A DNA stretch of 64,000 nt from Pseudomonadota bacterium (GTDB lineage: Bacteria > Bdellovibrionota > FAC87 > UBA2466), in the NCBI GenBank assembly GCA_043767805.1, contig JAYUGC010000066.1, positions 5,597 to 69,596 of the forward strand, in the 5' to 3' direction. The position numbers and the translations under genes are program-made. Position 1 is the stretch's first letter. Each line of letters starts with the position of its first letter. The notes beneath the pieces were generated by a model. It was not told where the DNA came from and made no database searches. It saw only the letters and a program-made list of their open reading frames with translations. Of this stretch, positions 11,088-42,947 are shown one piece after another.

Positions 11088-11118
11088 AAGGCCCCCCTCG
11101 CCGCGGCTACGCCGGCTC

Positions 11119-11147: not shown

Positions 11148-11182
11148 ACGACGGCACGATTCCTGCTTTCGAACGCCTCGCT

Positions 11183-11872
11183 ATGCCAAGAATGAAGCTT
11201 GTTCGAACCGCACGCGGCGTTTATCACATCACCAACAGAGTTAATCATAAACATGATTTTCCACTCCCACTCGAAGAGTGCTGGCCGATTTTCATGAATA
11301 TTTTAGAGAGGGTAACTGAGAACCTATCGGCGGAAATTCACGCTTTTGTCCTAATGTCTAACCACTATCATCTATTCCTAACGACCCCACTCTTCAACGT
11401 TGACGTAATAATGAAATATGTGAATCGGGAAGTAACCCGGGCGATCAGTCGGAAAACCGGTCTGATAAATCATATTTTCGGTGCGAGGTATCACCCCAGC
11501 CTTGTCTACAACCCACGAGACTTTGCTCACGTCCTGAAATACATATATAGAAATCCCGTGAAAGCAGGATTGGTAAAGAGCGTCGAACAATATCCTTTCT
11601 CCACCGTATCTAGCTTAGTTCACGCAAGTCGATTCGAATTTCTGAGAGCGAGCAAATTTTTCCCCGATGCCCTGTCCGGACTTCGCCCTGCGGAGAGATT
11701 ATTTTGGCTCAATGAGCCTCTGGCTAAAGAACAGGAAGAGCTGATTCGAAAGGCAAATAGGAGGCGAGAGTTTCAGTTCTCGAATCGCGTCGCCGAGCAG
11801 AAAGTGGCTGCCCAATTATCTCCGGCACCCTGGCTAAAAGTATCCACACACCTTTTGGCTAAGGGCTGCTGA
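11183..11872 (+). CDS. REP-associated tyrosine transposase (RAYT) / IS200-like Y1 HuH transposase
   Basis: 'ARGVYHITNRVNHKHDF' N-terminus, HuH motif 'VLMSNHYHLFL', and catalytic Tyr motif 'YIYRNPVKAGLV'. The ORF-track extension upstream (10649-11182) is Arg-rich and overlaps czcD, so it is not coding. The last 14 nt overlap the stop region of the convergent membrane-protein gene. Confidence 0.75.
   Translation: MPRMKLVRTARGVYHITNRVNHKHDFPLPLEECWPIFMNILERVTENLSAEIHAFVLMSNHYHLFLTTPLFNVDVIMKYVNREVTRAISRKTGLINHIFGARYHPSLVYNPRDFAHVLKYIYRNPVKAGLVKSVEQYPFSTVSSLVHASRFEFLRASKFFPDALSGLRPAERLFWLNEPLAKEQEELIRKANRRREFQFSNRVAEQKVAAQLSPAPWLKVSTHLLAKGC
11831..11859. repeat. right 29-bp inverted repeat of RAYT element
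   Basis: Exact reverse complement of 11119-11147. It ends precisely at the TAG stop of the minus-strand membrane-protein gene. Confidence 0.8.
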
Positions 11873-24745: not shown

Positions 24746-24763
24746 GGGGAAAACCTACTCCAT

Positions 24764-26050: not shown

Positions 26051-26117
26051 GGCAAAGATTATACACGGACTTAAGTCAGAGACACGTCCGAGCGATCCAA
26101 GTGTTAACTTGGAAAGT

Positions 26118-29100
26118 TCAGCCCGTGGACGGGAGTTTGCCGGAACGCGCGCCCGCGCCGCGCGCCACCTTCATCTCGATGCCCCGGAGCCAGAGAAAAC
26201 AGCGCCCGTTCTCGTCAAAGAGCGCAACCTCGCTCTTGACCGACGTGCCATCGGACTCGAACTGCTCGAGCCGCAGGCTCACCTTCTCGCTGGGCCGATG
26301 GGTGAAGTAGGTCAGCACGTGGGCGACCCGCACGGGCAGGCAATAATTCCCATTCCGCTCGATCTCGATGACGGCCGTCATCTGGAAGGCGGTATCGATC
26401 CACTGGATGAGCCGGCCCCAGAACGAAGCCGAGTAATCATTGGGAAAGAGATCGGCCAGGCCAAAGGTATTCAGCCGTGCGACCGCATCGCCCCGGCCAT
26501 CGATGAGAACATTCGACAAGGTTTGAAACGCGGGCCCGTGAAAGAGGCCTTGCGGCGCATAGATTTGCCGCTCTCCCACGGTCTGAGCGTTAGCAGCCTC
26601 GCGCCAAAGGGGCGGCAAGGCGGCCGTGCCTTCGGCTTCGCACGCGCGAAAGGACCCGTGATCGGAGGAAATCGTGATTTCGAGGACGCCCTGCCCTGCG
26701 CGCGCCTCCATCGAAAGATCGGCGCCCTTGTCGCCCACCACGATGGGACTTTGCGCGACGAAGTCCGCAAGCCCCACCCAGCGTTTGTGATGCAGGTAAA
26801 GCCCAGCCAAGGACATCGCAACCCCCGCCGCCGCCGGAAGGTAGGCGAGCCCTTCGATCCGGTGATCGGAGAGCATGGTATCGAACGCTGGATCAAGCCG
26901 CCGTACGTAGCGATAAACGCCACGCCCGGCGACCGAGGTCCCCAACAACTCCGGGAAGCCCGTCGCGAGCGATTGGCCATAGGCGAGCCAATCGGTGTCA
27001 TCGAAATAGAGCACCGGCCCTTCGCTTTGAAAAAGATCCTGGCGGAAAAGCTCCGCGGCTTTTTCCGGAGTGAGAAGCGAAAGCCCCTTCTGCACGAGCC
27101 CTTGGCGGATGGCGCGGTTCGCGGTCATACCCACGCCGTCCCAAGGCGGCCAGAGGAGAGAGGCCGCCGAGCCCGCGCCCCAAGCGGAGTTGAGCTCTCG
27201 GCAGAATCGATCGAGCACGGCGTTGGCCGCCGCATAGATGGTCTGACCCGGATTGCCGAACCAGGACACCACGGAAGAGAAAAAGAGAATCCGCTTTGGC
27301 GGATTGGCGGCCACCGCGCGCACCACGTGCGCCGCCGACAAAGCCTTCGCCCAAAGCTCCGAGCGGATTTCCTCGGCGGTCTTGGCTCCCAGCGCCCGGC
27401 TGACCTCGACGCCTGAAGCGTGGATCAGCAAGTCGATGCGCCCGTGTTTGTCCAAGATACGCTCGAGATAGGGCGCGACCTCTTCTTGCCTGGTCGCGTC
27501 CACGGTCTCGTAGCTCAACTCCGGATGTTTGGCCCGAAGGGTATCCAGGTGCGGCGTGATCTCGGTTTCCGACGATCGGCCGCAGAGATGCAGATGACCC
27601 ACGTGATCAAGACCGAGGAGCAAGCTTTGGGTGATGCCCTTCGCGCCGCCGATGGCCACTACCACGGCATTTGGAGGAAGACTCTGCAAGGCATCCGGAT
27701 CGGGCATGGCCTCGAGGCGAGCCACATAGCGAACGCCCTCGCGGTAGCGTACTTCCCATTCGAGGGGATCTCTCATCTCTTCGCGAATCCAACGTAACGC
27801 CTCGATCTTCGGATCGGCGTCGTCCAGACGGATGTGTTTGAAACGAATCTCGGGCGATTCCTTGCGTAAGGCTTTGAAGAAAGCGGCGATCGCTTCCGTA
27901 ATGACGCTGCCTTGGCCCATGGTCACGAACCCGATGGTCAGCTCGGCCAGCTTGGGCTCGATCCGCACAACTTCCTGCACGGCCTCGGCCGCTCTGGGAA
28001 GCCCGGTCTCAAGCCATTGATTGAGGGACCCATCCGCGGTGAGCGACAAATCGCTCACGAAGCCGGTCGCGACAAAGATCACTTGCCGCGTGCGGCAGGA
28101 AGCGAGCTGCTGACGAAACTCAGCCGCGAGCGCTTTTGGATCGAAATCGGTCAGGAAATCCGCTGGGGTCAGCGGGATCATGAGCGGGGTCGCTTCGACG
28201 GAAACTTCCCAGATGGGATCAAGCGCCTGAGGGAACCAAGCCACCCGTTTACGCTCGAAATGACCGACCTTTTCGGGCATCGCCTCGGCGCCCTTCGCGG
28301 CCGGCGCTTCGGTCTCCATGTAACCCACGAGATCTTCGACCTTCGTGAAGCGAGCGTAGTTGACCTCGCCCTCGGGCTTGAAGTTCAGGCGATCCATGAC
28401 CGAGAATAGGATTTCGGTCTTCTTGATGGAATCGATCCCCAAGTCTTCCTGGAAACGATCTTCGAGAGAGATTTCCTCGATCTGGTAGCCGGTAATCTTT
28501 CCGATGACGTCGTTGACGATGGAAAGTACGCGGCCCGCGGGCTTCTTTGCTTTGGCGGCGGCCGCTTTCTTGCGGGGGGTCTTACGGAGCAAGTCGCCCA
28601 CCCAAAGCGTTTCCTTCGCTCCGCATTCGCGCGCCAAAGCCGAGAGCAGCGAGGTGGGGCCAATCTCCATGAACTTGGTGGTGCCGCCCTCGGACATCAC
28701 GCCCATCTGCCGGATGAAATCGACGGGCTCGACCAGCTGATTTTCGAGAATGAAGAAGATGTCATCGGCTTTGAAGTTCGTGGCGTCGACTTGGCGGTGG
28801 AGCACGGAGGAAACGAAAGGAATCGCGGGAGGCGAGAAATTCCAGCTGCGGGACCGCAGGAACTTACGCATCACCGGCTTCAAGGAAAGCAGAAACGGGG
28901 AGTGATACGGCTGCGGCGTGAGAAGGCGCTTCGCCTTGACCCCTTTGTCCTTGATGAGCCGCTCGATCTCGTCCACTTCGCCCGGCGCCACGGCGATGAC
29001 CGTCTGGGTGGGGCTGTTGAAATTGGAAAGATGCACGTTGCGGCCGCGAAGGAGGACCGCCGTGCGCTCGCGGTCCGCGCCCACCGCCACTAGATAACCG

Positions 29101-29600
29101 CGCTCGTTGGCGGGCGGCGAAATCTGTTCTCGGTAGGTCACGAGAGCGAGCATTTCTTCGAATGGCACGACGCCCGCGGCGACCAGCATCGCGTACTCGC
29201 CGAAAGAATGGCTGGTCAGCACCTTCGGAAAGATCCCGCGGCACAAGAGCGAGTCGAAGAGCGCCACTTCGAGTACGAAGAGACTCAAATTCTGGATCGG
29301 TAAGAGGGAAGCCGGGTCCGCGCCTTCTTCGGCCAAAATATGAGAGGAGATCTTGGGAAGGCCGGCACTTACCACGAGCTTATCGGCCTTCTCGAAGACG
29401 CCGCGAATCTCGGGACGGTGGTACTGATCGCGGAGCATGCCCGGGTGCGCGGCGCCTTGGCCGGCAAAGAGAAATCCCCAGCTCGCCTGAGCCGTGGCGG
29501 GCTTCACTTGCAGCTGGTAGCCGCCGCCAAAGATAGACTCCGAGCGCACTTCGGCTTTCTGGTACCAGTTGAGGCCATGCAGGAAGGAAGTGCGGTTCAT
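26118..29600 (-). CDS. type I PKS / PfaA-like protein: acyltransferase - ACP - ketoreductase - PS-type dehydratase (no KS)
   Basis: True start is 'MNRTSF' at 29600, overlapping the KS gene stop (ATGA). AT domain: 'GQGAAHPGM', 'LTSHSFGEYAML' (GHSxG). ACP: 'LGIDSIKKTEIL'. KR: 'VVVAIGGAKGITQ' ... 'YAAANAVLD'. DH: 'HRIEGLAYLPAAAGVAM' (HxxxGxxxxP). The ORF-track N-terminal 28 aa are an extension. Confidence 0.85.
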   Translation of the reverse strand: MNRTSFLHGLNWYQKAEVRSESIFGGGYQLQVKPATAQASWGFLFAGQGAAHPGMLRDQYHRPEIRGVFEKADKLVVSAGLPKISSHILAEEGADPASLLPIQNLSLFVLEVALFDSLLCRGIFPKVLTSHSFGEYAMLVAAGVVPFEEMLALVTYREQISPPANERGYLVAVGADRERTAVLLRGRNVHLSNFNSPTQTVIAVAPGEVDEIERLIKDKGVKAKRLLTPQPYHSPFLLSLKPVMRKFLRSRSWNFSPPAIPFVSSVLHRQVDATNFKADDIFFILENQLVEPVDFIRQMGVMSEGGTTKFMEIGPTSLLSALARECGAKETLWVGDLLRKTPRKKAAAAKAKKPAGRVLSIVNDVIGKITGYQIEEISLEDRFQEDLGIDSIKKTEILFSVMDRLNFKPEGEVNYARFTKVEDLVGYMETEAPAAKGAEAMPEKVGHFERKRVAWFPQALDPIWEVSVEATPLMIPLTPADFLTDFDPKALAAEFRQQLASCRTRQVIFVATGFVSDLSLTADGSLNQWLETGLPRAAEAVQEVVRIEPKLAELTIGFVTMGQGSVITEAIAAFFKALRKESPEIRFKHIRLDDADPKIEALRWIREEMRDPLEWEVRYREGVRYVARLEAMPDPDALQSLPPNAVVVAIGGAKGITQSLLLGLDHVGHLHLCGRSSETEITPHLDTLRAKHPELSYETVDATRQEEVAPYLERILDKHGRIDLLIHASGVEVSRALGAKTAEEIRSELWAKALSAAHVVRAVAANPPKRILFFSSVVSWFGNPGQTIYAAANAVLDRFCRELNSAWGAGSAASLLWPPWDGVGMTANRAIRQGLVQKGLSLLTPEKAAELFRQDLFQSEGPVLYFDDTDWLAYGQSLATGFPELLGTSVAGRGVYRYVRRLDPAFDTMLSDHRIEGLAYLPAAAGVAMSLAGLYLHHKRWVGLADFVAQSPIVVGDKGADLSMEARAGQGVLEITISSDHGSFRACEAEGTAALPPLWREAANAQTVGERQIYAPQGLFHGPAFQTLSNVLIDGRGDAVARLNTFGLADLFPNDYSASFWGRLIQWIDTAFQMTAVIEIERNGNYCLPVRVAHVLTYFTHRPSEKVSLRLEQFESDGTSVKSEVALFDENGRCFLWLRGIEMKVARGAGARSGKLPSTG

Positions 29601-31648
29601 GGCTGAAAGTCGATTCCTTCCAGAGTGAACAGCGGTCCCTTGCCCACGTCCGGCACTTCTCCGGGCCGAGCGAGGAGCAGGCAATGGACTCCCGCCTTAC
29701 GAACGTCCGGCAAAGCTTCGTCGATGATGTCCTCGACTCCGATCGCCACTACGTAATCGCTCGTCTTCTGCCAGAGCTCGAGACGCGCGGCGCTCAGCGC
29801 GCAGGCAAACGAGTTCAAGTCGGCATCGACGTGGTAATTGGGGCCGTGAAAATCAAATTGATTGGCGACTCTACCGGCGATGACGTTGTCGAGCGTGCCC
29901 GGCCCGGCGTCCTCGCCGATTTTGGGATACCGTTCCCGGTGCGAGATGAGTCCTTTGAGGCCCGGCTCATCGCCTTTTCTGCCGCGCGCGAACTCCCAAT
30001 GACGAACCCGGCAATTGAGCCAGGCGTCCAGACCGAGCGAACAGGAGGAGATGACCGCCACGCGGTCGCGGGGAATCTGATCCCAATCGAGCCCCGAGCG
30101 ATCGAGCGCTTCGGACACCGCCATGAGGGTTAGTAGCTGGCTCACGTCGATCTGATTCAAGTTATTGGGCGGGATCTTAAAACCGTAGCTCGGAAAAAAA
30201 TCGAGGAAGTTCTCTCTCGGCACAAAGCTCTGCGCGAGCACCGAGACGGGCCCGACCTCGAGCTTCGGCCGCTCGGCAAGCGCGGTCGTCTGAGAAAACG
30301 TTTCCAAAAAGAGATGGTAGTTCGTCCCGCCAAAACCCGCGGAGCTTACGCCCGCTCTCAACGTACCTTCCTTCGCCATGAGAACCGGCTTCGGATTCAC
30401 GAAGACCGCGGTGGGGGCTCGTTCCTCGATGTAACTTTCGAAGTACGGGGATGGGGGTGCCGTGCGATGGGTAAGCGCAAGAATGCATTTGAGCATTCCC
30501 GCGGCGCCGGCCGCTCCCTTGGTGTGCCCGATTAAGGACTTCACGGAACCGATGGGAATCGGCGTGGGCGCGCCCTTGAAAAAAGCATCGAGGGTGTCGA
30601 TCTCGGTTGCGTCGCCGAGACGCGTGCCGGTCGCGTGGCATTCCAGAAAGTCGAGACGCGCGGGCTTGTTGTCGCCGTACGCTCGCTCCAAAGCGAGGCG
30701 CTGTCCATCGGAAGTTGGGGAAAAGAGACTGGCGCCGCGTCCATTCGAGGAACCGCCACAGCCCCGCAGGATCGCCTTTACCGGAAGCCCCGCCTTCATA
30801 GCGTCGTCTAAACGCACGAGAGCGAAGACCGCGGCGCCTTCTCCTTGATTCACGCCGTCCGTTTTATCGTCGAGCGGAAGGCAGCGGCCGTGGGACATGA
30901 GCCCCAGGCGGCTGAACAAAACGAAGTACTCGGGCGCAAGCTGTGTCTCGACACCGCCCGTGAGAGCGATGTCGCATTCCCGCGCGCGCAGTTTCTTCAT
31001 GGCGACGTCTGCCGCGGCAAGAGACGAGGCGCAAGCGGCCCCCACCAGACACCGTTCGCCGGGCATTTTGAAATGCCTTTGCAGGCGGTCGACCGCCGCC
31101 GTGTTGACGACGAGAGGAAGCGGCGTGGAGCGCTCCGCTTCTAGACGCCTAAGGGTGCTATCCAGGATGGCTCTCGCGGGAGCGCGCTCGGCGGCGGGTA
31201 ATGTCTCGATGTGCTCGAGAAGGCGCGGTCGTTCTAGGATGAGCTTGTGCTCGGAGACCTGATCGTCGGGGCCAAGGGCCCCTAGAAACCAGCCGGCTTT
31301 CCATCCCGCGCGCTTTGCCTCGGGGACCGTGGCTAGCGCCTGATGAGTCGCTTCGAGCAAAAAGACCTGAAAGCGATTCGTGTCTTTGAAATCCAGCCCA
31401 TGCGCTAAAGCGAGCCGCCGCACTTCGGTTTCGGCGACATAGGCGCCGAAAGTGGAATAAGTTTTGTCGGGATCTTCGCCGGTCTCGTCCAAATAAAGAT
31501 CTTCGGGCCAGCGATCGGCCGGAGCGCGGCGGATGGAGGGCTCGCCCGCGAGCACTCGCTTCCAAAAAGTGTCGGGGTTCGGTGAGTCCGGAAAGACGCA
31601 CCCAATTCCCACGACAGCAATATCGTCCTTATAAAGTGTATCGGGCAT
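29597..31648 (-). CDS. type I PKS ketosynthase (KS + KS-AT linker), stand-alone polypeptide
   Basis: 'DIAVVGIGCVFPDSPN', active-site Cys 'VGAACASSLAA', His motifs 'ECHATGTRLGD' and 'SLIGHTKGAAG'. About 250 aa of linker follow the KS. The gene is translationally coupled to the downstream AT-ACP-KR-DH gene. Confidence 0.85.
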   Translation of the reverse strand: MPDTLYKDDIAVVGIGCVFPDSPNPDTFWKRVLAGEPSIRRAPADRWPEDLYLDETGEDPDKTYSTFGAYVAETEVRRLALAHGLDFKDTNRFQVFLLEATHQALATVPEAKRAGWKAGWFLGALGPDDQVSEHKLILERPRLLEHIETLPAAERAPARAILDSTLRRLEAERSTPLPLVVNTAAVDRLQRHFKMPGERCLVGAACASSLAAADVAMKKLRARECDIALTGGVETQLAPEYFVLFSRLGLMSHGRCLPLDDKTDGVNQGEGAAVFALVRLDDAMKAGLPVKAILRGCGGSSNGRGASLFSPTSDGQRLALERAYGDNKPARLDFLECHATGTRLGDATEIDTLDAFFKGAPTPIPIGSVKSLIGHTKGAAGAAGMLKCILALTHRTAPPSPYFESYIEERAPTAVFVNPKPVLMAKEGTLRAGVSSAGFGGTNYHLFLETFSQTTALAERPKLEVGPVSVLAQSFVPRENFLDFFPSYGFKIPPNNLNQIDVSQLLTLMAVSEALDRSGLDWDQIPRDRVAVISSCSLGLDAWLNCRVRHWEFARGRKGDEPGLKGLISHRERYPKIGEDAGPGTLDNVIAGRVANQFDFHGPNYHVDADLNSFACALSAARLELWQKTSDYVVAIGVEDIIDEALPDVRKAGVHCLLLARPGEVPDVGKGPLFTLEGIDFQP

Positions 31649-31700
31649 TTACGAGCTGGGAGAGCGTAGAGGAAGGCTCTTAAAAGGTACGGCGTACCTA

Positions 31701-32522
31701 TTAAGATGATTTCTCTATTTTAACGCCTAGCCGCTCGAAGGCATAGCCCGGCGATCCCATGAAGTGATAGCCGCCATCGACGTGGAGCACTTCGCCTGTG
31801 GTAGACGCGGAAAGGTCGGAGAGGAGAAAACCCATGGCGCGCGCCACGTCATCGCCGGTGATATTACGGCCTTGCGGGGACATGGCCTTGAATTTCTCGA
31901 GCACGTCGCCGAAGACACCGAAGCTTTGGGTTTTAACCGGGCCCGCGCTCACCGCGTTGACCCGAATGCGCTTGGGCGCCAAATCGTAAGCGAGATAGCG
32001 GAGCGCCATGTCGAGAGCCGCCTTACACACCCCCATGAGGTTGTAGCCACTCACTACGCGCTCCCCGCCGAAGTAGGTGAGCGTGCCGATGGCGCCACCC
32101 GAGGGCATGAGAGCCGCCGCCTCCCGCGCACAGGCGATGAGGCTATAGCAGCTGACGTCCATGGCGACGCGAAAGCCTTCCCGGCTCGCCTCCAAAGTCG
32201 TGTGCTTCAAATCTTCGACGGGCGCGAAGGCGATGGAGTGCACCAGAAAATCGATGGCCCCCATTTCCCCGCCCGCCTCATTGAAGAAATGTTTGAGCGA
32301 TGCGTCGTCAGCGACGTCGCAAGGGAGAACGAACAGCGGACTCAAAGCGTCCGTCGCCGTTTTTACTTTCTGCAGGTTCCAATCGCGGCCGGGCTTATCC
32401 GTCTGGTACGAGAGCCCTATCTCCGCTCCTTCCTTTTTCAGGAAAGTTGCGATGGCCGTCGCAAGAGACGCCTCATTCGCAATGCCCATGACGATGCCGC
32501 GTTTACCGGTGAAAAGTCCCAT
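31701..32522 (-). CDS. fabI: enoyl-[ACP] reductase, FabI-like SDR
   Basis: Start 'MGLFTGKRGIVMGIANEASLATAIA' is a FabI-type NAD-binding N-terminus. 'Y..MGVCKAAL' is the Tyr/Lys catalytic pair. 273 aa. The ORF-track N-terminal extension (to 33044) is rejected. Confidence 0.75.
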   Translation of the reverse strand: MGLFTGKRGIVMGIANEASLATAIATFLKKEGAEIGLSYQTDKPGRDWNLQKVKTATDALSPLFVLPCDVADDASLKHFFNEAGGEMGAIDFLVHSIAFAPVEDLKHTTLEASREGFRVAMDVSCYSLIACAREAAALMPSGGAIGTLTYFGGERVVSGYNLMGVCKAALDMALRYLAYDLAPKRIRVNAVSAGPVKTQSFGVFGDVLEKFKAMSPQGRNITGDDVARAMGFLLSDLSASTTGEVLHVDGGYHFMGSPGYAFERLGVKIEKSS

Positions 32523-32675
32523 GGGGAAATTGTACCAGTCGGCCCCTTTTGGGGTGCAAAGTGCCCAAACGCGGCACCCCTCCGAGGGGAGAAGCACCTC
32601 CCCTCGAAGGAGGAAACCGGAACACCTCTTGCACAAGAGAACCTCAGGGCTGCATTGGCCCTGGAGGCGGTAGGC

Positions 32676-32978
32676 ATGGACCCACACTGGCTTAAATACA
32701 AGAACGACGACGAGATCGGACCCTTGCTCGCCAGCTACTCGCACACCGACGAGCAGCTCGACTTTCTCAAAAACGATCTCCGCGACAACGGCAATATCGA
32801 GGGCATCCTCGCCGTCTCTCGCCGCCAAGTGGCCATAAAGTACAAAATCTCGAAGCTGGTGGGGGCCGAGGAAGACCGCCACTTCCAAAGGCGCATGAGC
32901 CTTTTGTGGATGCTCGGGGTTTTCGCGCTCGTTCTGGTCGGCGCGGCGAATCTTGCGCTGCGTCTCGGAATCTTTTAA
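32676..32978 (+). CDS. small tail-anchored membrane protein (100 aa), not called separately in ORF track
   Basis: ATG at 32676 has GGAGG 8 nt upstream. Strong GC3 coding bias. C-terminal TM helix 'LLWMLGVFALVLVGAANLALRL'. The sequence is 'MDPHWLKYKNDDEIGPLLASYSHTDEQLDFLKNDL...'. It sits 57 nt upstream of the SPFH gene on the same strand. Confidence 0.45.
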   Translation: MDPHWLKYKNDDEIGPLLASYSHTDEQLDFLKNDLRDNGNIEGILAVSRRQVAIKYKISKLVGAEEDRHFQRRMSLLWMLGVFALVLVGAANLALRLGIF

Positions 32979-33034
32979 CCAGTTTTCCCTTAAACAATAG
33001 GCAGGTAGCGACCGATAGAGCATTCGGTAGCAAA

Positions 33035-34000
33035 ATGCCCGCACCCAAACAACAAAACGGACTTTTCCAAGGCATCTACGAGTTCCAAGATCCGTCGGGC
33101 ACTTTGCTCGCGGCTCGTATCCCGGCCTCCGGCTCCGTGGATCTCTACGACGGCACGACTCTCGTAGTGCGGCCCAATCAGTGCGCGATGTTCGTGCACA
33201 AAGGCCAAGTCGCCGACATTCTCACCCAAGGCACGCATACGCTTCGCACCGAGAACGTTCCGGTGCTCACCCGACTCGCGAACTGGCGCAAAGGGTTTCA
33301 GAGCCCGGTGCGCGCGGAAATCTGGTTCTTCTCTGGAATGGTTTTCACGGCTCGCCGCTGGGGAACCGCTCAACCGGTACTCACCAATCTCGACGCCGCC
33401 CCGATGCCTCTGCGCGGGTACGGCAACTACAATATTTTCATCCGCGATCCCCGCAAGCTTTTCAAAAAGCTCGTCGGCACGCGCAGCTTTCTGGACATCA
33501 CCGAGATCGAGGAGTTCGTCCAGAGCGAGATCCTCGCGGCTCTTCCCACTGCTCTCGAAGTCTTGAAATCGGTTTCCGATCTGGGCGCCTCGCACCGTCA
33601 GGTGGCAGCCAGGTTAGAAAACGATCTCGTGGCCCGGCTCGCCGAGTACGGCTTGTCGGTGACCAATCTCCAAGTGCTTGCTCTCATCCCGCCTCAGGAA
33701 GTGCTCGAGGCGCTGGACGCGAAGCTCGCCATGAAAGTGATCGGCAATCCGAAAGAGTACCTGCTTTACAAGGCGGCCAACTCCCTCGATGCCCTGCACG
33801 AGTCCGGCGGCAATGACTCGCTCCAGATGATGCTCGGGATGATGCTCGGCAAAGGACTCATCGGCGCCGATTATCACGAGAAAGAAAAATCTCTCGCGTC
33901 GGACAAGAGCGCGTCCCAGCAGCGCTGCGCTTCGTGCAACAACATCACCGATGCCGTGAACCGTTTTTGCCCTCATTGTGGCCGGGAGCTTGCTAAATGA
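33035..34000 (+). CDS. SPFH/band-7 domain protein with C-terminal zinc ribbon
   Basis: The SPFH-like core is followed by 'CASCNNITDAVNRFCPHCGREL' (CxxC...CxxC). Start is 'MPAPKQQNGLFQG'. Confidence 0.55.
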   Translation: MPAPKQQNGLFQGIYEFQDPSGTLLAARIPASGSVDLYDGTTLVVRPNQCAMFVHKGQVADILTQGTHTLRTENVPVLTRLANWRKGFQSPVRAEIWFFSGMVFTARRWGTAQPVLTNLDAAPMPLRGYGNYNIFIRDPRKLFKKLVGTRSFLDITEIEEFVQSEILAALPTALEVLKSVSDLGASHRQVAARLENDLVARLAEYGLSVTNLQVLALIPPQEVLEALDAKLAMKVIGNPKEYLLYKAANSLDALHESGGNDSLQMMLGMMLGKGLIGADYHEKEKSLASDKSASQQRCASCNNITDAVNRFCPHCGRELAK

Positions 34001-34890: not shown

Positions 34891-35745
34891 TTATCCCTTC
34901 CGAAGGCCTTTGTCGGCGTATTGATACTCGAGGAAGCGGCGCAAGATTCCTTGTTCCACTTTTCCTTTTTGGCGGGCGGGGACGCAGACGCGGGCGATGA
35001 GCTCGATTTGTCCCGGCTTCGGAATCGTGATCGTCACGCGGGCTTCGGTCGACGGCGTATCGAGCCCTCTTTTGCGGCCTAGCAGCTCGAAGTGCTCGCG
35101 CGCCTTTTGGGCGAACGGCTGGCAAATTTCCACGCAAGAGCTCATCAGCCAGGTCTCGGCCGTCCGCCAGTCGTAACTCGTCTCGAGTGGAACGGTGAAG
35201 ACATGGAGCACATAATGGTCCGTGTAGCTTTCATTTACTAGCGGCTTGAGCAGGAAGAGCGAGTTAGGAACCGAGATGGCTCGTCCCGTATATCCATGGG
35301 TCATATGCCCCGGCCCGATCTCCAAAACGGTGGTGGTAAAGGCGTTCTGATCGATGACGTCCCCCCGAATGCCTTCGATTTCGATCCGGTCTCCGATGGA
35401 GAAGGACTGCGACAAAGTCTTTACGAACGTTCCGCCGAGACAGGCCAGCGGATCGCGCACCGCCAAGACCACGGCGGCGGCGATGGCGACGATGGAGAGC
35501 GCCATCGATCTCAGCTGGGTCGCCCAGATAATGGTCACCCCGAAGAGAAAGAGCACGGCCCAGACGTTCCTCAAGGTGACCATGAGCCAGCGCTGGGTGT
35601 CGCGGTTGGCAAACTTCAAATTGCGCACCAGGCGATTGCCGATAAATCTCAAGGCGAAGACCAAAATGACGAAGGCGATGGAGGCGAACAGCTTTTGAAA
35701 CACGTCCGCCCGGTGGATAAGCGCAATGAGAGTTTGCGAGGTCAT
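34891..35745 (-). CDS. mscS: small-conductance mechanosensitive channel (MscS family)
   Basis: N-terminal TM helices, then the MscS beta-domain motif 'FSIGDRIEIEGIRGDVIDQNAFTTTVLE'. Confidence 0.8.
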   Translation of the reverse strand: MTSQTLIALIHRADVFQKLFASIAFVILVFALRFIGNRLVRNLKFANRDTQRWLMVTLRNVWAVLFLFGVTIIWATQLRSMALSIVAIAAAVVLAVRDPLACLGGTFVKTLSQSFSIGDRIEIEGIRGDVIDQNAFTTTVLEIGPGHMTHGYTGRAISVPNSLFLLKPLVNESYTDHYVLHVFTVPLETSYDWRTAETWLMSSCVEICQPFAQKAREHFELLGRKRGLDTPSTEARVTITIPKPGQIELIARVCVPARQKGKVEQGILRRFLEYQYADKGLRKG

Positions 35746-35883: not shown

Positions 35884-37941
35884 ATGCGCATAGCTTTCGT
35901 CTTTAACAAGCAAAGGACCAAGTCCGTCGCCGAAGCCGAGTTCGACACGGCGGAGACCATCGAGGCGATTCATAACGCCTTGGGCTCCACCGGGCACGAA
36001 GTGGTCGACGTGGAAATGACCACGGACGCCACCTGGGTGGAACGGCTGCTCCGAGTCAAACCGGATCTCATCTTCAATACCGCGGAAGGCTATCGCGGCG
36101 TCGGCCGAGAGAGTTTGGGGCCGGTCCTCTTCGAGCAATCCGGCCTGACGTACGTCGGATCGGGCCCCTACGCCTGTTTTCTGACCCTGGATAAATTTTT
36201 GACTAAGCAAATGGTCTCCCAGCGCGGGGTTCCCGTCTCCGAAGGCCACTTCGTCACGAGCGAGGACGAGCTCAAGACGGTAGCCATGGAAATGGTCTAT
36301 CCCGCGTTCGTTAAGCCCAACTACGAAGGTTCCTCGAAGGGCATCACCAAGCAGAGCATCTGCCGCACGCCCAAGGATCTTCTCGCCTACGGCAAGAAAT
36401 GCCTTTCCGAGTTCCCCGAAGGCCTCCTCATCGAGCGCTTCATTCCGGGTAAGGACGTCACCGTGTCCTATATCGCGGGCCTGGGCGATGAAGGCGTGCT
36501 GGAGCCCGTCGAGTACACCCAGATGGAAAAGCAGGACGGCGACTGGGTTTACGACTACGAGCTAAAAAACATCTCGGACGAGAAAGTCGGCATCCGCTGC
36601 CCGGCGCAGCTTCACCCCTTCACCCGCATTCAGATTATCGAAAAGATGAAACGTTGCGTTAGCGCGCTCGGCGTCGTCGACATGGGCCGCGCCGATTTCC
36701 GGGTCACGCCGGAAGGCGACGTCTACTTCATCGAGTTCAACGCCCTGCCCTCGCTCCAACCCGGCGCCGGAGTGTTCGAAGCGACGAAACTCTTGGGACT
36801 CAGCTACAACCAAACGTTATCGCGCATCCTGGAAACCTCTCTCTCCCGGCAAAAGTTGCAGGGCCCGGTGAACCGGCCTTCCCGCAAAATGACGGTGAAG
36901 TCGCCGCTGGTCGCGGTGGTCTACAACTTGCGCCGCAAGAACAAGGAAGAGGACGGCTACGAAGACGAGGCGGAGTTTGATTCCCAAACGACGGTGGACG
37001 CCATCTGCACGAGCATCCGCACGCTCAACTATAAAGCCATTCCCATCGAAGCGACACGCCAGCTCGCCGAACAGCTCAAAGAAGCCCACGTCGACATCGT
37101 TTTCAACATCGCGGAAGGCCGCGCGAAGAAAGCGCGCGAAGCGCAAGTACCAGCCATCTGCGATCTCTTGGGAATCGAGCACACCGGAAGCGACGTGCCT
37201 TGTCTCGCGCTGACTCTCGACAAAGCGATGACGAAAAAGATCGTCATGTCGGAAGGCATCCTCACCCCCCGGTACGCCATCTTGAACCGGCCTCCCAAAC
37301 GCATCGAGCTGGGTCTCAAATTTCCGATCATCGTGAAGCCGAACCAGGAAGGCACGTCGAAGGGCATTTACGAAAAGTCGGTCGTCTCCACCTCCGAAGA
37401 GCTCCTCGCTTCCATTCAGGCGCTCTGGACCAAGTTCCAAACACCGGTGCTCTGTGAGGAGTACATCGAAGGCCGCGAGTTCACCATCGGGGTTCTGGGG
37501 AGAAATGCGCTAAAGACCGTTGGCCCCATGGAAATCGCCTTCAAGCCCCGTCCGACGACCGCCTATCCGGTGTACTCCTTCGAAGCGAAGATGAGCGAGA
37601 ATCCCATCGACAATGAGTTCTGCCAGCTGATTTGCCCTCCGGAGCTCGATCCGACGCTCCTTCGCCGTATCAACGCCTTCGCGAGAAAGACGTTCAAGAT
37701 TCTCGGCTGCCGGGACATCGCACGCATCGATTTCCGCGTCGATAAAACGGGACAAATCTACTTCATCGAGGTCAACCCGCTACCGGGTCTTTCGCCCGGT
37801 TTCAGCGACCTGGTCATCATGGCTGACAAATCCGGATGGAAGTACGATGATCTCATCAAAGGAATTTTGAATCCGGCGGTACTCAGGTGGCGCAGCACCT
37901 ACACGCACAGGAATCCCGATAGGGAGAACACGGGTGGCTAG
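35884..37941 (+). CDS. fused tandem D-alanine--D-alanine ligase-like ATP-grasp protein (two Ddl-type modules, 685 aa)
   Basis: Two consecutive Ddl-like units share the same motif order. The first runs 'RIAFVFNKQ..' through 'YPAFVKPNYEGSSKGIT' to 'ADFRVTPEGDVYFIEFNALPSL'. The second runs 'VAVVYNLRRKN..' through 'FPIIVKPNQEGTSKGI' to 'ARIDFRVDKTGQIYFIEVNPLPGL'. Confidence 0.7.
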   Translation: MRIAFVFNKQRTKSVAEAEFDTAETIEAIHNALGSTGHEVVDVEMTTDATWVERLLRVKPDLIFNTAEGYRGVGRESLGPVLFEQSGLTYVGSGPYACFLTLDKFLTKQMVSQRGVPVSEGHFVTSEDELKTVAMEMVYPAFVKPNYEGSSKGITKQSICRTPKDLLAYGKKCLSEFPEGLLIERFIPGKDVTVSYIAGLGDEGVLEPVEYTQMEKQDGDWVYDYELKNISDEKVGIRCPAQLHPFTRIQIIEKMKRCVSALGVVDMGRADFRVTPEGDVYFIEFNALPSLQPGAGVFEATKLLGLSYNQTLSRILETSLSRQKLQGPVNRPSRKMTVKSPLVAVVYNLRRKNKEEDGYEDEAEFDSQTTVDAICTSIRTLNYKAIPIEATRQLAEQLKEAHVDIVFNIAEGRAKKAREAQVPAICDLLGIEHTGSDVPCLALTLDKAMTKKIVMSEGILTPRYAILNRPPKRIELGLKFPIIVKPNQEGTSKGIYEKSVVSTSEELLASIQALWTKFQTPVLCEEYIEGREFTIGVLGRNALKTVGPMEIAFKPRPTTAYPVYSFEAKMSENPIDNEFCQLICPPELDPTLLRRINAFARKTFKILGCRDIARIDFRVDKTGQIYFIEVNPLPGLSPGFSDLVIMADKSGWKYDDLIKGILNPAVLRWRSTYTHRNPDRENTGG

Positions 37942-39148
37942 TCTTTTCCAAAAATACTCGGAAGCCGCTCAGCAGAGAAAGCGACTGAGACAGCTGGGCA
38001 TTACGCTCGGCCACTACGAGACCGGGCCGTTCAACGCCATCACGGACGTCGCCGGAGTCAAAGTGGGCCACGCCACCCTCATCGAAGGATCCGGCCGCCG
38101 CAAGCCCGGCAAAGGCCCCATCCGCACCGGCGTCACCATGATCATGCCGAGCGACGATATTTTTGAAAGAAAGCTCGTGGCGAGCGGTTTCATTTTAAAT
38201 GGCGCGGGAGAAGTCGCTGGCCTCACCCAGCTGATGGAATGGGGGCTCATCGAAACCCCCATCGCGCTCACCAACACGCTTTCGGTCGGCCGTGTCGGCG
38301 ACAGCATCGTAAAATGGATGGCCCAGCGCTACGGCCAGAGCCGCATTCAGGCGGAAGTGGTTATCCCCGTGGTCGGCGAGTGCGACGATAGTTTCTTGAA
38401 CGATGCCGTCGGACTCCACATCCGTCCGCAGGACGTGTTCGCGGCCATCGAGAGCGCGACGAGCGGTCCGGTGAGCGAGGGCTGCGTCGGTGCGGGCACC
38501 GGCATGATTTGCTGCGATTTCAAAGGGGGGATCGGAACCGCGAGCCGGGTCATCCCCATGGGGCTTCAGAAAGAGAAGCACACCATCGGCGTGCTGGTCC
38601 TCTCCAACTTCGGTCGCATGGAAGATTTGCGAGTGGACGGCTATCCGGTGGGCCGCGTGCTCTCTCGCGTGCAAGGCGAATACTCCCGCCGGCGGTTCAA
38701 TTACGGGTCCATCATCGTGGTCATCGCGACTGACCTGCCCGTAACGCCGCTGCAACTGGGACGTATTTGCAAGCGCTCGGCCTTAGGGATCGGCCGCGTG
38801 GGAACCTATGCCGCTCACGGGAGCGGAGAGATCATTCTGGGCTTCTCGACGGCGAACACCATTCCGAGCATTTCGACGCCGAAATTCTCCATGACGGTCA
38901 TCAACGATCCGTTTCTCGATCCCGCGTACGAGGCGGTCATCGAAGCGACGGAAGAAGCGATTCTCAATTCGCTTTGCGCCGCGGTCGATACCGACGGCGT
39001 CGGTGGCCACCGTGTGCCGGCCATCGACATCGAGATGCTGAAAAATCTTTTCTCCCATTACAACGCGACGAACGATTACTCGACGCTTCCCGGTAACTTC
39101 GCGCCTCGCTCGCCCGCGCCTCCCGAGCCCGATCCCATCGACAACTAA
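37934..39148 (+). CDS. P1/S58 family peptidase (DmpA-like L-aminopeptidase/D-Ala-esterase-amidase)
   Basis: GTG start with GGGAG RBS, overlapping the Ddl-like stop. 'ITDVAGVKVGHAT', 'GTGMICCDFKGGIGTASR' and 'GVLVLSNFG' fit the DmpA/S58 Ntn-hydrolase family. Confidence 0.65.
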   Translation: MASLFQKYSEAAQQRKRLRQLGITLGHYETGPFNAITDVAGVKVGHATLIEGSGRRKPGKGPIRTGVTMIMPSDDIFERKLVASGFILNGAGEVAGLTQLMEWGLIETPIALTNTLSVGRVGDSIVKWMAQRYGQSRIQAEVVIPVVGECDDSFLNDAVGLHIRPQDVFAAIESATSGPVSEGCVGAGTGMICCDFKGGIGTASRVIPMGLQKEKHTIGVLVLSNFGRMEDLRVDGYPVGRVLSRVQGEYSRRRFNYGSIIVVIATDLPVTPLQLGRICKRSALGIGRVGTYAAHGSGEIILGFSTANTIPSISTPKFSMTVINDPFLDPAYEAVIEATEEAILNSLCAAVDTDGVGGHRVPAIDIEMLKNLFSHYNATNDYSTLPGNFAPRSPAPPEPDPIDN

Positions 39149-39182: not shown

Positions 39183-39215
39183 TTGATAGACCGCCCCATT
39201 GCCTCCCCCTATAAT
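39183..39215 (+). promoter_or_regulatory. candidate promoter (TTGATA ... TATAAT) for small secreted basic protein gene
   Basis: Perfect -10 'tataat' at 39210-39215, about 47 nt upstream of the ATG at 39263. 'ttgata' at 39183-39188 sits at a non-canonical 21-nt spacing. Confidence 0.35.
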
Positions 39216-39262: not shown

Positions 39263-39559
39263 ATGAAATTCTGGATGCTCATGCTCTGTGCGATCACCCT
39301 CTTCACGGCGAGCCTCGCGAAAGCGGAAGACGAAGCCGCGGGAACCGACACGGTCACTACGACCGATACGACGACGACCGATTCCTCCACGACGGAATCG
39401 AAGGGCGGCCACAAGAAGCACGCTCGTAAGCACAAGTCCAAGATGACGAAGAAATCCAAGAAGGCGAAGAGAGCCCACAAAGCGGCGGAGCCCGTTGCGG
39501 CCCCCGAAGCGGCGACTCCCCCGGCTGAAGGCGAAATGCCGGCCGAAGGCGCGAACTAA
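39263..39559 (+). CDS. small secreted Thr-rich / Lys-His-rich basic protein (98 aa)
   Basis: Signal peptide 'MKFWMLMLCAITLFTASLAKA'. Mature part is 'TDTVTTTDTTTTDSSTTE' followed by 'GGHKKHARKHKSKMTKKSKKAKRAHKAA' and a Pro/Ala/Glu tail. Its own -10 box lies upstream and a strong terminator downstream. Confidence 0.5.
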   Translation: MKFWMLMLCAITLFTASLAKAEDEAAGTDTVTTTDTTTTDSSTTESKGGHKKHARKHKSKMTKKSKKAKRAHKAAEPVAAPEAATPPAEGEMPAEGAN

Positions 39560-39570
39560 AAGTTCGGTGA

Positions 39571-39608
39571 GGGTACCCGGCTCCGCGCCGGGTACCCTAC
39601 CTCTTTTA
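39571..39608. terminator. rho-independent terminator (11-bp GC stem + T tract), bidirectional position
   Basis: 'gggtacccggc-tccgc-gccgggtaccc' followed by 'tacctcttttacc'. It lies between the + gene ending at 39559 and the - gene ending at 39606. Confidence 0.7.
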
Positions 39609-40634: not shown

Positions 40635-41279
40635 GTGCCGCTACTTAGCTGCCTCGCTTTGCTTTTTATTTCCACGCTGGCTTTTGCCGAAGCGCCCCAA
40701 CGCCTCGCGAAAATCCGTCCACCGCTCTGGGACGTGTCGCCCCGTTTGATGCTCGGCTTCAATTTTTCCTACGGCGCCGCCGATCCCGGCTCTCCGGGCT
40801 CGACTCGCAATGCGCCGTCGTTTCTGGCGTCGGTCGATCTTCCACTCGGAAACGGCTGGTACTTTTCTCCGGGCATGGGCCTACTCGCTCGCGGGGTGCA
40901 GACCACGGTGTACACCTTGGGCACCTTGGATTTAAAGGGTAGCGTGCAGCTCGATTACGTCGAGCTTCCGCTTCTGCTGAAAAAATCCTTCGCAAGTCAC
41001 GTGCGCGGCATGCGCTATACGTTTTTCGGCGGCCCCGCCATGGCGCTCGCCATCCAGCGTGAGGTCGAGCTGCTAGGCGCCGTGAACCTCGACATCTCCG
41101 ATCGCTTTTTCGCGAGCGATACGCTTTTCTACATGGGCGCGGGGATTGAGTATAAAGGACCGAAGGGACCTGGGATCGTGGCGGAGCTCAGGTACGCGCT
41201 GGGGCTCGGCGACATCGATCGGACGGCGAATCAGTACCGCACGCGCGGGATTTTGTTTTTGCTGGGACTCAGCTTTTAG
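40635..41279 (+). CDS. outer-membrane beta-barrel protein (OmpA-N/porin-like small barrel)
   Basis: GTG start with GGAGGGG RBS. Signal peptide 'PLLSCLALLFISTLAFA'. Alternating hydrophobic beta-strand pattern. C-terminal 'GILFLLGLSF' ends in Phe, as in barrel-assembly signals. Confidence 0.6.
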   Translation: MPLLSCLALLFISTLAFAEAPQRLAKIRPPLWDVSPRLMLGFNFSYGAADPGSPGSTRNAPSFLASVDLPLGNGWYFSPGMGLLARGVQTTVYTLGTLDLKGSVQLDYVELPLLLKKSFASHVRGMRYTFFGGPAMALAIQREVELLGAVNLDISDRFFASDTLFYMGAGIEYKGPKGPGIVAELRYALGLGDIDRTANQYRTRGILFLLGLSF

Positions 41280-42094
41280 TCAGCGAGGGAGAGATCGCAA
41301 AAGAGACCTTCGGCAACCCAAGCCTGAAACCAAAGGCTTAGTTTCCCGGGATCGTCCACGAGTCCTTCAATGGCAGCGCAAGCCGACCCGAGAGTCTCGC
41401 CGCGGGAAAGATTTTCCAAGAGACGGAACGCGCCGAGCTCCAGACTCTCGACTCGCATGCCGCCGGAGAGCAGCCGGCGAGCGCAAAGCCACTGCTTGCG
41501 CGGCTTTTTCGGAAACGTAAGGCGTTGCGATCCTAAACGATGGCGCCACAGCCCCAAGATGGGCCAGGCCGATTCCACGAGCCGCACTGAAGGCGCGAGC
41601 TCCAAGCGAACTTGAGTGCCCTCTTCTCCCGCGAGTAACTGCAACCGCTCCGGCGCGAGAGCGCGGGACTGCCCCGCGAAAAAAGCCTCGAGATACCAGC
41701 GCTCGAAACGGGCGAGCTCTCCGAGCCAAGGGTTATCCCGGCAAAGCTCCAGGGATTGCACGAACTCGGGGAACGCCCTACCCGCGACCATAATGTCGGG
41801 AGACTGCGAAGGATGCCTTTCGAAATACAGGCGCACTAGATCGGAAAACGTCTCGTAGTCCTCAAGCCAAGTGACGGACTTCCCCGTGGCCTCATAGTCA
41901 TCGGAGACGCTTTCCAAAAGACGCCAGAAGTAGCCGTTCGCGTAGATCGCCACTCGATCCGCGCGCGCGATGGGCGGCTGATCCACGATGTGCGGATGCG
42001 CGGCCCAAACCGCCGGATCCGTACCGGTGAAAGCTTCACGGAGCGATTGCTGAAGCTCGGCTAGACTGGGCACCCGCCCTCGGGTCGCATCCAA
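41276..42094 (-). CDS. DUF2063-family protein (MbnC/BufC-like partner of MNIO enzymes)
   Basis: 272 aa. It lies immediately downstream of, and overlaps, the DUF692 gene, which is the canonical DUF692-DUF2063 pairing. The start is uncertain (59-nt overlap if taken at 42094). Confidence 0.6.
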   Translation of the reverse strand: MDATRGRVPSLAELQQSLREAFTGTDPAVWAAHPHIVDQPPIARADRVAIYANGYFWRLLESVSDDYEATGKSVTWLEDYETFSDLVRLYFERHPSQSPDIMVAGRAFPEFVQSLELCRDNPWLGELARFERWYLEAFFAGQSRALAPERLQLLAGEEGTQVRLELAPSVRLVESAWPILGLWRHRLGSQRLTFPKKPRKQWLCARRLLSGGMRVESLELGAFRLLENLSRGETLGSACAAIEGLVDDPGKLSLWFQAWVAEGLFCDLSLAD

Positions 42095-42947
42095 GAAATT
42101 CCTCCCGGAAAAACTCTGCCCGGGCCGCCTCTTCGGCTAGCCGGGGAAATTCAGGTAACTGATCGTCCCACTCGATCAGGGTCGGCACGTCCCCAAAAAG
42201 CCTGAGCGCCTGGCGGTACAGCTCCCAAACGGGATCCGATACCGGATGGTCGTGGGTATCAATGAGATGGGTACCCTTGTCCGAGTACCCCGCCAGATGA
42301 AACTGCCCCACGCGATCGGCCGGCACCGCGTTCAAGTAGGTCATCGGATCGAAACCATGGTTGCGGCTACTGACGTAAATATTATTCACGTCGAGCAGCA
42401 ACCCGCAATCGGCCTCCTCGGCGACACGAGAGAGGAACTCCCACTCCTCCATTTCGGAATGAGTGAAGGTGAGATAGCTCGAGACATTTTCAACCAGGAT
42501 GCGGCGGCCGAGAAAATCCTGGACCTGGCCGATGCGGCTCACCACGTGCTTAAGCGCTTCTTCCGTATAAGGAAGCGGAAGTAAATCGTGCAGGTTCTGC
42601 CCTCCGACCCCCGTCCAGCAAAGGTGATCGGAAACCCACGCCGGCTCTACGCGGGCGATGAGCTCTTTCCAGCGCTTTAGATAATCGTCTCGAAACGGAT
42701 CGACCGATCCCAAGGAAAGCGAAACGCCATGAAGAACGATGGGGTAATGCTCGCGCACGGACTCCAGAATTTCGACGGGTCTTCCGAACTCCCGCGCGCC
42801 CAGCCCTAGAAAATTTTCGGTGATGACTTCGAACCAGCCCAGGTTGGGCCGGTTCTCGAGGACGAAGGGATAGTGAGGCGGACGGAGCCCCACGCCCACT
42901 CCGAAGGAGCGTGCCTGGTACCCGTCCGCCTCACCAAATCGATACAT
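42036..42947 (-). CDS. DUF692 / MNIO (multinuclear non-heme iron oxidative enzyme; MbnB/BufB-like)
   Basis: N-terminal 'SFGVGVGLRPPHYPFV' matches the DUF692 'GIGLR..H' hallmark. Later 'HGVSLSLGS', 'ENVSSYL' and 'LLLDVNNIYVSS' are TIM-barrel (xylose-isomerase-like) iron-ligand regions. Confidence 0.8.
   Translation of the reverse strand: MYRFGEADGYQARSFGVGVGLRPPHYPFVLENRPNLGWFEVITENFLGLGAREFGRPVEILESVREHYPIVLHGVSLSLGSVDPFRDDYLKRWKELIARVEPAWVSDHLCWTGVGGQNLHDLLPLPYTEEALKHVVSRIGQVQDFLGRRILVENVSSYLTFTHSEMEEWEFLSRVAEEADCGLLLDVNNIYVSSRNHGFDPMTYLNAVPADRVGQFHLAGYSDKGTHLIDTHDHPVSDPVWELYRQALRLFGDVPTLIEWDDQLPEFPRLAEEAARAEFFREEFLGCDPRAGAQSSRASAIAP

Follow-up and report, generated by a model that had tools for sequence, protein, structure and literature searches.

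Several described systems couple, genetically or physically, an ATP-dependent, amide-forming enzyme to a hydrolase of the same bond: cyanophycin synthetase and cyanophycinase, glutathionylspermidine synthetase and its amidase, and carnosine synthase (the ATP-grasp enzyme ATPGD1) and carnosinase. Others use successive ATP-grasp ligations to arrive at a small non-ribosomal product, as in the bifunctional glutathione synthetase GshF, the C-terminal ATP-grasp part of which resembles D-Ala-D-Ala ligase (Ddl), and in the synthesis of mycosporine-like amino acids by MysC and MysD. On the hydrolytic side, DmpA hydrolyses D-Ala amides and esters, and members of its family, S58/P1 in MEROPS, are used as biocatalysts; we know of no assigned physiological substrate or agreed natural function for this family. 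Here, we report that both kinds of enzyme are encoded side by side in a 64,000-nucleotide stretch of a Bdellovibrionota genome (contig JAYUGC010000066.1; the whole stretch is referred to below as the window): a fused double Ddl-like ligase, followed directly by a DmpA/BapA-family aminopeptidase (hereafter, S58). This ligase-S58 operon is real, widespread and uncharacterized, and it brings known kinds of enzyme together in a new combination.

DmpA, BapA and BapF cleave β-alanyl peptides such as carnosine, which in animals is the product of an ATP-grasp ligase, and with activated donors both DmpA and BapA carry out aminolysis and form peptides (PMC9235088). Plant DDL is a fusion of two DDL genes that is found throughout the plant lineage, its reported context being plastid peptidoglycan synthesis (PMC9954125). 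The window protein likewise has two Ddl-fold modules in one polypeptide, but these belong to two paralogue types that have diverged, their pockets are not those of a Ddl, and their partner is a peptidase. With DdlA, DdlB, VanA, VanB, VanC and VanG (EC 6.3.2.4), the window modules share the three-domain ATP-grasp fold and the catalytic residues, whereas they are ~25-30% identical to these enzymes, fall below all curated cut-offs and have had their D-Ala motifs replaced; moreover, there are two non-identical modules per chain, and they are linked to S58 rather than to cell-wall genes. The idea of successive ligations is common to GshF and MysC/MysD, although the window has neither a GshA-type domain nor 4-deoxygadusol genes, both of its units are Ddl-like and fused, and a third, GshB-like ligase is present in some Myxococcota operons only. 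The synthetase/hydrolase pairs named above are alike in their coupling of amide formation to hydrolysis, but their ligase and hydrolase families differ (S51, CHAP, M20). Finally, in contrast to the characterized S58 enzymes, the window S58 is encoded directly downstream of an ATP-grasp ligase. A full-text literature search, which is incomplete for subscription journals and no proof of novelty, returned no paper on a pairing of a Ddl-like ligase with S58. An earlier note on this DNA had found the architecture unfamiliar, and in that respect it stands; the arrangement is, however, not rare, being common in Bdellovibrionota and Myxococcota. The features of the locus, in window coordinates, are as follows.

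35884-37941 (+), stop codon included: fused double ATP-grasp (Ddl-like) ligase gene, 685 residues (open reading frame (ORF) list, translation, Pfam, AlphaFold2, relatives)
35884-36861 (+): N-type ATP-grasp module, residues 1-326 (DdlB alignment, conservation in relatives, NCBIfam scores)
36862-36891 (+): inter-module linker GPVNRPSRKM, residues 327-336, predicted to be disordered (translation, model confidence)
36892-37938 (+): C-type ATP-grasp module, residues 337-685 (DdlB alignment, NCBIfam scores, pocket signature)
37922-37926 (+): Shine-Dalgarno-like GGGAG, 7 nt 5' of the S58 GTG and within the ligase coding region (sequence)
37934-37941 (+): 8-nt gene overlap GTGGCTAG, comprising GTG (37934-37936) and TAG (37939-37941) (sequence, ORF coordinates)
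37934-39148 (+): S58/P1 (DmpA/BapA-family) self-processing aminopeptidase gene, 404 residues (Pfam PF03576, PDB sequence matches)
38705-38710 (+): codons of G258-S259, predicted as the site of autoproteolysis and the Ser nucleophile (DmpA alignment; translation NYGSIIVVIAT)

Both structural claims of the earlier note, that the 685-residue protein consists of two complete ATP-grasp modules and that its stop codon overlaps the GTG of an S58/DmpA-family gene, are borne out. Pfam finds two stretches of Dala_Dala_lig_C (PF07478; 212 bits summed) in the ligase and no match to Dala_Dala_lig_N, and the two halves align to each other over their full length (30% identity, E = 5e-43). The AlphaFold2 model, for which the input alignment held 45 sequences, has a mean predicted local distance difference test (pLDDT) score of 92.5 and contains two complete three-domain ATP-grasp folds of the Ddl kind, separated by the linker, where pLDDT is <50. 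In Foldseek comparisons, DdlB, DdlA and the Van ligases head the list with nothing nearer, the closest PDB structure being P. aeruginosa DdlB (8evz; TM-score (target) 0.85).

For residue conservation, E. coli DdlB was the reference to which both halves of 118 relatives, and afterwards those of a more diverse set of 99, were aligned; full-length relatives are 45-92% identical to the window ligase. The residues equivalent to K97, K144, E148-G-S-(S/T), E180, K215, R255, D257, E270 and N272 of DdlB are (nearly) invariant in both modules, such that the ATP, Mg and transition-state residues are kept throughout: the module pairs K104/K447, K144/K485, E148/E489, K228/K569, R269/R614, D271/D616, E284/E629 and N286/N631 are each retained in 95-99 of the 99 sequences. 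The ATP lysines, the Mg-binding D/E/N triad, the catalytic Arg and the three-domain fold, in both the AlphaFold2 model and the Foldseek matches, place the protein in the ATP-grasp superfamily, and both modules are apparently catalytically competent. The intact catalytic set rules out a degenerate duplication, which the earlier note had listed as an alternative.

Despite its fold, the ligase does not score as a Ddl when its modules are taken singly, which is the form in which we applied the family test (single-unit score against NCBIfam NF002378, TIGR01205 or equivalogs). Against the best NCBIfam Ddl model, the N-module alone reaches 137.4 bits and the C-module 179.2 bits, both below the cut-off of 243, and each module lies far under the cut-off of every Ddl/Van equivalog and exception model; the 312 bits of the whole protein, which exceed the 243 subfamily cut-off, are the sum of the two modules. 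The substrate-binding motifs have likewise been replaced. In place of the Ddl N-terminal GGxSxE loop, the ligase modules have an invariant AEFD motif, and HGxxGEDG has become (A)EG....RE, with H63 changed to E and E68-D69 to R-E. Of the Ddl triad E15-S150-Y216, S150 is retained whereas Y216 is substituted in both modules, by N, S, T or H in the N-module and by Q, L, H, F or M in the C-module (M in the window protein). At the position of S281-L282, the N-module has A295-G/S296 and the C-module an invariant S641-D642. Additionally, G276 is replaced by S290 in the N-module pocket, and the C-module pocket is lined by E362/E364/D366, E411, R418-E419 and an aromatic residue at 640. These substitutions are (nearly) invariant across the 99-118 relatives, and neither module retains the D-Ala-binding residues expected of EC 6.3.2.4. 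Neither dcw/mur cell-wall genes nor a Van-type operon (VanH, VanX) is linked to the pair, S58 being the sole conserved neighbour. The per-module scores and the lost D-Ala site lead us to conclude, from alignment, that the ligase would share Ddl chemistry and yet is no true D-Ala-D-Ala ligase; on the same two grounds, a housekeeping or Van-type Ddl is rejected, and with it the alternative, listed in the earlier note, of a housekeeping Ddl joined to an unrelated domain. Two further candidates were set aside: cyanophycin synthetase (CphA1), because Pfam finds only ATP-grasp and Ddl-C domains and no Mur_ligase domain, and an anti-phage defence system, because neither protein matches any PADLOC model.

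The S58 gene begins at a GTG that is the first in-frame start after a stop and that lies 5 nt ahead of the ligase TAG; the ligase frame itself opens with the ATG at 35884. Later S58 starts would cost part of a conserved N-terminus, as alignments to solved S58 structures start at residues 12-18. The 8-nt overlap, the GGGAG element and the absence of a suitable later start make translational coupling of the two genes a reasonable reading of the junction. The overlap behind this coupling, which the earlier note had proposed, is not general: it is limited to the window genome and a few others, and most relatives have the two genes next to each other, ~0-290 nt apart.

The S58 product matches Peptidase_S58 (PF03576) almost end to end (379 bits against a gathering score of 23.9, E = 2.5e-113, profile positions 1-306 of 307). 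Among PDB sequences, it is closest to P. horikoshii PH0078 (2drh; 4.8e-90), followed by DmpA of O. anthropi (1b65; 9e-71) and BapA (3n2w; 5.5e-67, 229 bits), with a weak match to ThnT; it is thus homologous over its full length to these S58/P1 enzymes and to BapF, and falls nearest the uncharacterized PH0078 branch, with the motif ECxDS[FY]LND. By alignment, G258|S259 is equivalent to the self-cleavage site G249|S250 of DmpA, N225 and S297-G298 to DmpA N218 and S288-G289, and E149 to E133 of BapA; all of these residues (E149, N225, G258, S259, S297 and G298) are invariant in 90 S58 proteins from ligase-S58 cassettes. The Gly|Ser site, the oxyanion residues and the assisting residues are therefore all present, and S58 is predicted to cleave itself at G258|S259, freeing Ser259 as the nucleophile. 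Neither the ligase nor the S58 sequence has a signal peptide, which argues for a cytoplasmic system, as for DmpA. The last ~25 residues of S58 form a Pro-rich low-complexity tail ending FAPRSPAPPEPDPIDN (39076-39145). This tail is seen only in the closest (>90% identical) relatives; other orthologs stop ~20-25 residues sooner, and S58 relatives cover 93-94% of the window query.

The pair is strongly conserved, contrary to a further alternative in the earlier note. A scan of a genome collection found 31 full-length ligase relatives, all in Bdellovibrionota or unclassified 'delta' metagenome-assembled genomes (MAGs), the nearest being in a Pseudobdellovibrionaceae MAG (92% protein identity). Wherever downstream sequence was available, S58 followed directly on the same strand (30/30 genome loci); the ligase and its downstream S58 were also found in Desulfoluna limicola (Desulfobacterota), in Halobacteriovorax and on a 45%-identical metagenome contig. 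Apart from the pair, none of the ORFs in this part of the window reappears in the loci of the genome relatives, and no racemase, aminomutase, decarboxylase, transporter or carrier peptide is conserved in the Bdellovibrionota neighbourhoods. A metagenome scan seeded with stand-alone N-type proteins added 80 loci, with GC contents of ~0.41-0.71 among those sampled. All 70 metagenome loci with both modules have N and C in a single reading frame, as do about 30 genome loci of Bdellovibrionota; an assembly or frameshift artefact is excluded as the source of the fusion, since it recurs in every locus showing both modules. S58 follows the ligase in 47 of the 57 metagenome loci with enough flank, giving synteny across phyla. 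A protein search with one high-GC locus assigned the high-GC group to Myxococcota (Polyangia, 'Myxococcales'), where such proteins are very abundant in soil metagenomes and are labelled 'D-alanine-D-alanine ligase' or 'ATP-grasp domain-containing protein'.

The origin of the two modules was addressed with a HMMER search of 1.84 billion cluster representatives, which returned 991 proteins at E <= 1e-30, and by parsing domains into N-type and C-type with module-specific hidden Markov models (HMMs). N-type units are found alone, in proteins of ~330 residues, and in the leading half of N-C fusions; C-type units are found alone, in the trailing half of N-C fusions and in the leading half of another tandem, 'C-X'. 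Each clade has a pocket signature that its members share. Given such separate clades, each with its own pocket, the 685-residue ligase is best seen as a fusion of two old paralogues rather than a recent internal duplication, which amends the earlier picture of Ddl modules duplicated in place. Moreover, three loci (L039, L123 and L124) have a single N-type gene in translational coupling with S58 and no C-type gene nearby; S58 thus seems to be linked to the N-type activity.

The C-type relatives provide the strongest hint to the substrate. In P0296, P0308, P0343 and P0359, a C-type domain is joined within one protein to a radical-SAM lysine-2,3-aminomutase domain. The P0296 fusion is encoded with a second Ddl-like ligase and a GNAT gene (L036, 154-3999); in L122 (3-3929), an aminomutase is accompanied by a C-X tandem and a GNAT-HDAC fusion; the P0308 fusion stands alone (L125, 73-2307); and in L121 (7171-9258) a KamA-type lysine-2,3-aminomutase is joined to a C-type ligase. 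The aminomutase domain of P0296 matches C. subterminale KamA (2a5h) with 381 bits and keeps D293 and D330, which we take to be the residues that bind the ε-ammonium group of lysine. The ligase domains of P0296 and P0308 are ~40% identical to the C-module and, at the 24 pocket positions compared, have the consensus of the cassette C-modules, including S641-D642; residue 640 is Y in both, within the aromatic F/W/Y range of the cassette, and P0308 deviates also at 566. It is this pocket signature, common to the cassette and the aminomutase-linked domains, that would point to the kind of substrate, and the aminomutase-C-type loci look like pathways to small peptides containing β-lysine. In contrast to the cassette, these relatives (P0296/L036, P0308/L125 and L122) carry or adjoin a KamA-type aminomutase, have no N-type module and, in two of the three loci (L036 and L122), adjoin GNAT or HDAC-type genes rather than S58. 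A full-text literature search, again incomplete for subscription journals, found no paper on aminomutase-ligase fusions.

Three further contexts are each compatible with small-molecule peptide chemistry, and each is narrowly distributed. The N-type ligase P0334 (L120, 407-1789) has a C-terminal SET (methyltransferase) domain. In L041, S58 is followed by a glutathione-synthetase-like ATP-grasp gene (10529-11629; PF02955 and PF02951), and this GshB-like ligase is also found in L043, L059, L060, L068 and others, giving three ligase units per apparent operon; it is confined to one Myxococcota sub-clade and may reflect no more than local synteny. Lastly, a pyridoxal 5'-phosphate-dependent group II amino-acid decarboxylase gene (PF00282) lies at 7041-8258 of L123, two genes upstream of the N-type gene and S58, in one species only; its product might supply an amine or a β-alanine-type substrate.

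Taking these observations together, we propose with moderate confidence that the two genes form a cytoplasmic operon for an ATP-dependent, non-ribosomal small-peptide pathway, in which the ligase makes the product and S58 breaks it. As the catalytic residues and fold are shared with Ddl, the same acyl-phosphate chemistry presumably applies: in each module, a carboxylate would be phosphorylated to the acyl-phosphate, as is standard for ATP-grasp enzymes, and then attacked by an amine. The two sites, being of different specificity, would most likely act successively, joining three building blocks to give a product that is tripeptide-like or a short oligomer. The C-type site would take a lysine- or β-lysine-like, dibasic or β-amino-acid unit; its acidic pocket, and the signature that it shares with the aminomutase-fused relatives, make a dibasic or β-amino acid probable. 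Indeed, the invariant Asp of the C-type signature aligns with the position at which Ddl binds the carboxylate of D-Ala2, where it would fit a cationic group, although lysine or β-lysine specifically is a doubtful choice for this unit. The N-type site appears roomier, with small residues (S290, G294, A295, G/S296), and could accept a dipeptide. Self-cleaved S58 would then most likely remove an N-terminal β-, D- or otherwise unusual residue from the ligase product, the cleavage serving turnover, recycling or maturation, much as cyanophycinase, carnosinase and glutathionylspermidine amidase partner their synthetases. The architecture, the complete catalytic sets of all three catalytic units, the non-Ddl pockets, the conserved linkage and the phyletic distribution are observed; the two-step assembly, the kind of substrates and the hydrolytic role of S58 are points that we infer. 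The β-amino-acid peptide suggested by the earlier note gains support in this way, albeit indirectly, from the aminomutase-fused C-type relatives and from the S58 enzymes that cleave β-alanyl peptides (PMC9235088).

A number of points weigh against this proposal. The pocket residues were assigned by aligning the sequences to DdlB, at ~27% identity, rather than read from a structure with bound ligand. The predicted template modelling score (pTM) of the ligase model is only 0.54, so the relative placement of the modules is uncertain and channelling between the sites would be hypothetical; the two sites could instead make two separate dipeptides and no single tripeptide. There is no aminomutase, racemase or decarboxylase gene in the window or the Bdellovibrionota loci, and the link to β-lysine is consequently one of homology, through relatives that are ~40% identical. 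Furthermore, 10 of the 57 informative metagenome loci have no nearby S58, so the ligase can evidently work without a cis-encoded peptidase. The S58-less Myxococcota loci form a sub-clade in which, in place of S58, a histidine kinase gene and one for a σ54-type response regulator come after the ligase: L050, L064, L069 and L070 have a HAMP histidine kinase gene downstream of the tandem ligase, and in L050 and L064 a gene for a σ54-dependent (NtrC-type) response regulator comes next. Finally, the role of S58 could be that of a transferase, or its substrate could be an unrelated one.

This last point is the core of the alternative that survives best, although we consider it unlikely: that there is no make-and-break cycle, and that S58 is either an aminoacyl or peptidyl transferase in the style of ArgJ, ThnT or GGT, or an enzyme that frees unusual N-terminal residues from imported or prey peptides to supply the ligase. 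The main carriers of the pair, Bdellovibrionota and Myxococcota, live as predators and digest the peptides of their prey, but Desulfoluna, which is no predator, has the pair as well. The DmpA fold is common to ArgJ and ThnT, to the latter of which the window S58 is weakly matched, and DmpA and BapA are capable of aminolysis and of peptide formation from activated donors (PMC9235088); against this, the catalytic set of S58 is that of the DmpA/BapA hydrolases, and no acceptor-related or transport gene is conserved nearby.

It is improbable, in our judgement, that the ligase is a cyanophycin-like or other poly-amino acid synthetase, its sites alternately extending a storage or capsule polyamide with S58 as the exo-depolymerase. 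Two unlike ligase sites in one chain beside a hydrolase do resemble the logic of cphA-cphB, both sites look active, and a basic residue, such as that of Asp-Arg polymers, would fit the acidic pocket. The Mur-ligase-type domain, a primer-binding N-domain and any membrane or export component are, however, missing, known S58 enzymes are short-peptide aminopeptidases rather than polymer depolymerases, and the single-module relatives, together with the aminomutase, GNAT and HDAC contexts, are closer to small-molecule chemistry; nothing specifically indicates the cyanophycin-like compound that the earlier note had entertained.

Very improbable is a tandem D-Ala-D-Ala or VanA-like ligase that feeds peptidoglycan, with S58 as the D-aminopeptidase by which D-Ala termini would be trimmed or recycled. 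In both sequence and fold, no family is nearer than Ddl, the whole-protein score passes the subfamily cut-off, no canonical ddl is present in the 64-kb window, and the known action of DmpA on D-Ala amides and esters would suit such a role, as would the precedent of fused double DDL genes throughout plants (PMC9954125). This is outweighed by the single-module scores of 137 and 179 bits, by the family-wide replacement of GGxSxE, HGxxGEDG, Y216 and S281-L282 in both modules and by the missing Dala_Dala_lig_N match. Neither cell-wall genes nor those for a racemase, VanH, VanX or VanY are linked to the pair, and close paralogues accompany aminomutase, GNAT, SET and HDAC domains, not mur genes; the remodelling of peptidoglycan termini that the earlier note had suggested loses its footing on the same evidence. 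The weakest alternative, for which we see hardly any chance, is that the ligase modifies a protein or carrier peptide in the manner of RimK, LysX or TTL instead of free amino acids: other ATP-grasp families do so, and one N-type relative is fused to SET, typically a protein lysine methyltransferase domain, but no small carrier or precursor ORF is conserved beside the pair, the fold and nearest relatives are of the small-substrate Ddl type, and S58 enzymes target the free N-termini of short peptides.

The genes that flank the pair in the window are unrelated to it. Upstream is a divergent MscS-like channel gene (34891-35745, -), and an MscS-type gene also lies 3 kb from the pair in Halobacteriovorax (L035, 12966-13838); it was not seen beside the pair in the other loci, and could hint at an osmotic role or be a coincidence. 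Downstream is a small ORF (39263-39559, +), followed by a convergent pyrophosphatase gene. The small ORF encodes a putatively secreted protein of 98 residues, whose N-terminus resembles a signal peptide and whose body is of low complexity and rich in Thr, Lys, Ala and Pro; Pfam gives no match, and related loci do not conserve the ORF. A promoter-like site of its own, TAGACC-17-TATAAT (39187-39215), and a strong hairpin terminator (39570-39598) accompany it, and for these reasons, and for its lack of conservation, it was rejected as a member of the operon. Further downstream, a RiPP (ribosomally made, post-translationally modified peptide)-modification gene of the MbnB/TglH/ChrH family (DUF692; 42036-42947, -; E = 3e-110) shares an overlap with a DUF2063 gene (41276-42094), a combination that is typical of systems that modify peptides. 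The window also holds a polyketide/fatty-acid-synthase-like gene set (23669-33044, -), which is not conserved beside the ligase-S58 pair elsewhere and consists of the following genes.

23669-24745 (-): OYE flavin oxidoreductase
24764-26050 (-): AMP-binding enzyme
26118-29684 (-): AT-KR-DH multidomain protein
29597-31648 (-): ketosynthase
31701-33044 (-): SDR/enoyl-reductase-like protein

The consequences extend beyond the window. Thousands of genes from soil bacteria and predators that are labelled 'D-alanine-D-alanine ligase' are almost certainly mislabelled, which skews inferences about cell walls and antibiotic resistance from metagenomes. Together with the relatives linked to aminomutase, GNAT, HDAC and SET, the two ligase clades sketch out a family of pathways to small peptides that do without the ribosome. 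A conserved operon with a specific ligase, moreover, points to the source of the natural S58 substrates and makes that question directly testable. Tentatively, the product may be an undescribed cytoplasmic, tripeptide-like metabolite (a compatible solute or buffer, for instance) built with lysine, β-lysine or some other β-amino acid, as a trait found across Bdellovibrionota and Myxococcota and with S58 as its dedicated hydrolase. If so, it would, as far as we know, be the first physiological substrate for the DmpA/BapA/PH0078 family, and it would tie that family to a new clade of Ddl-fold ligases.

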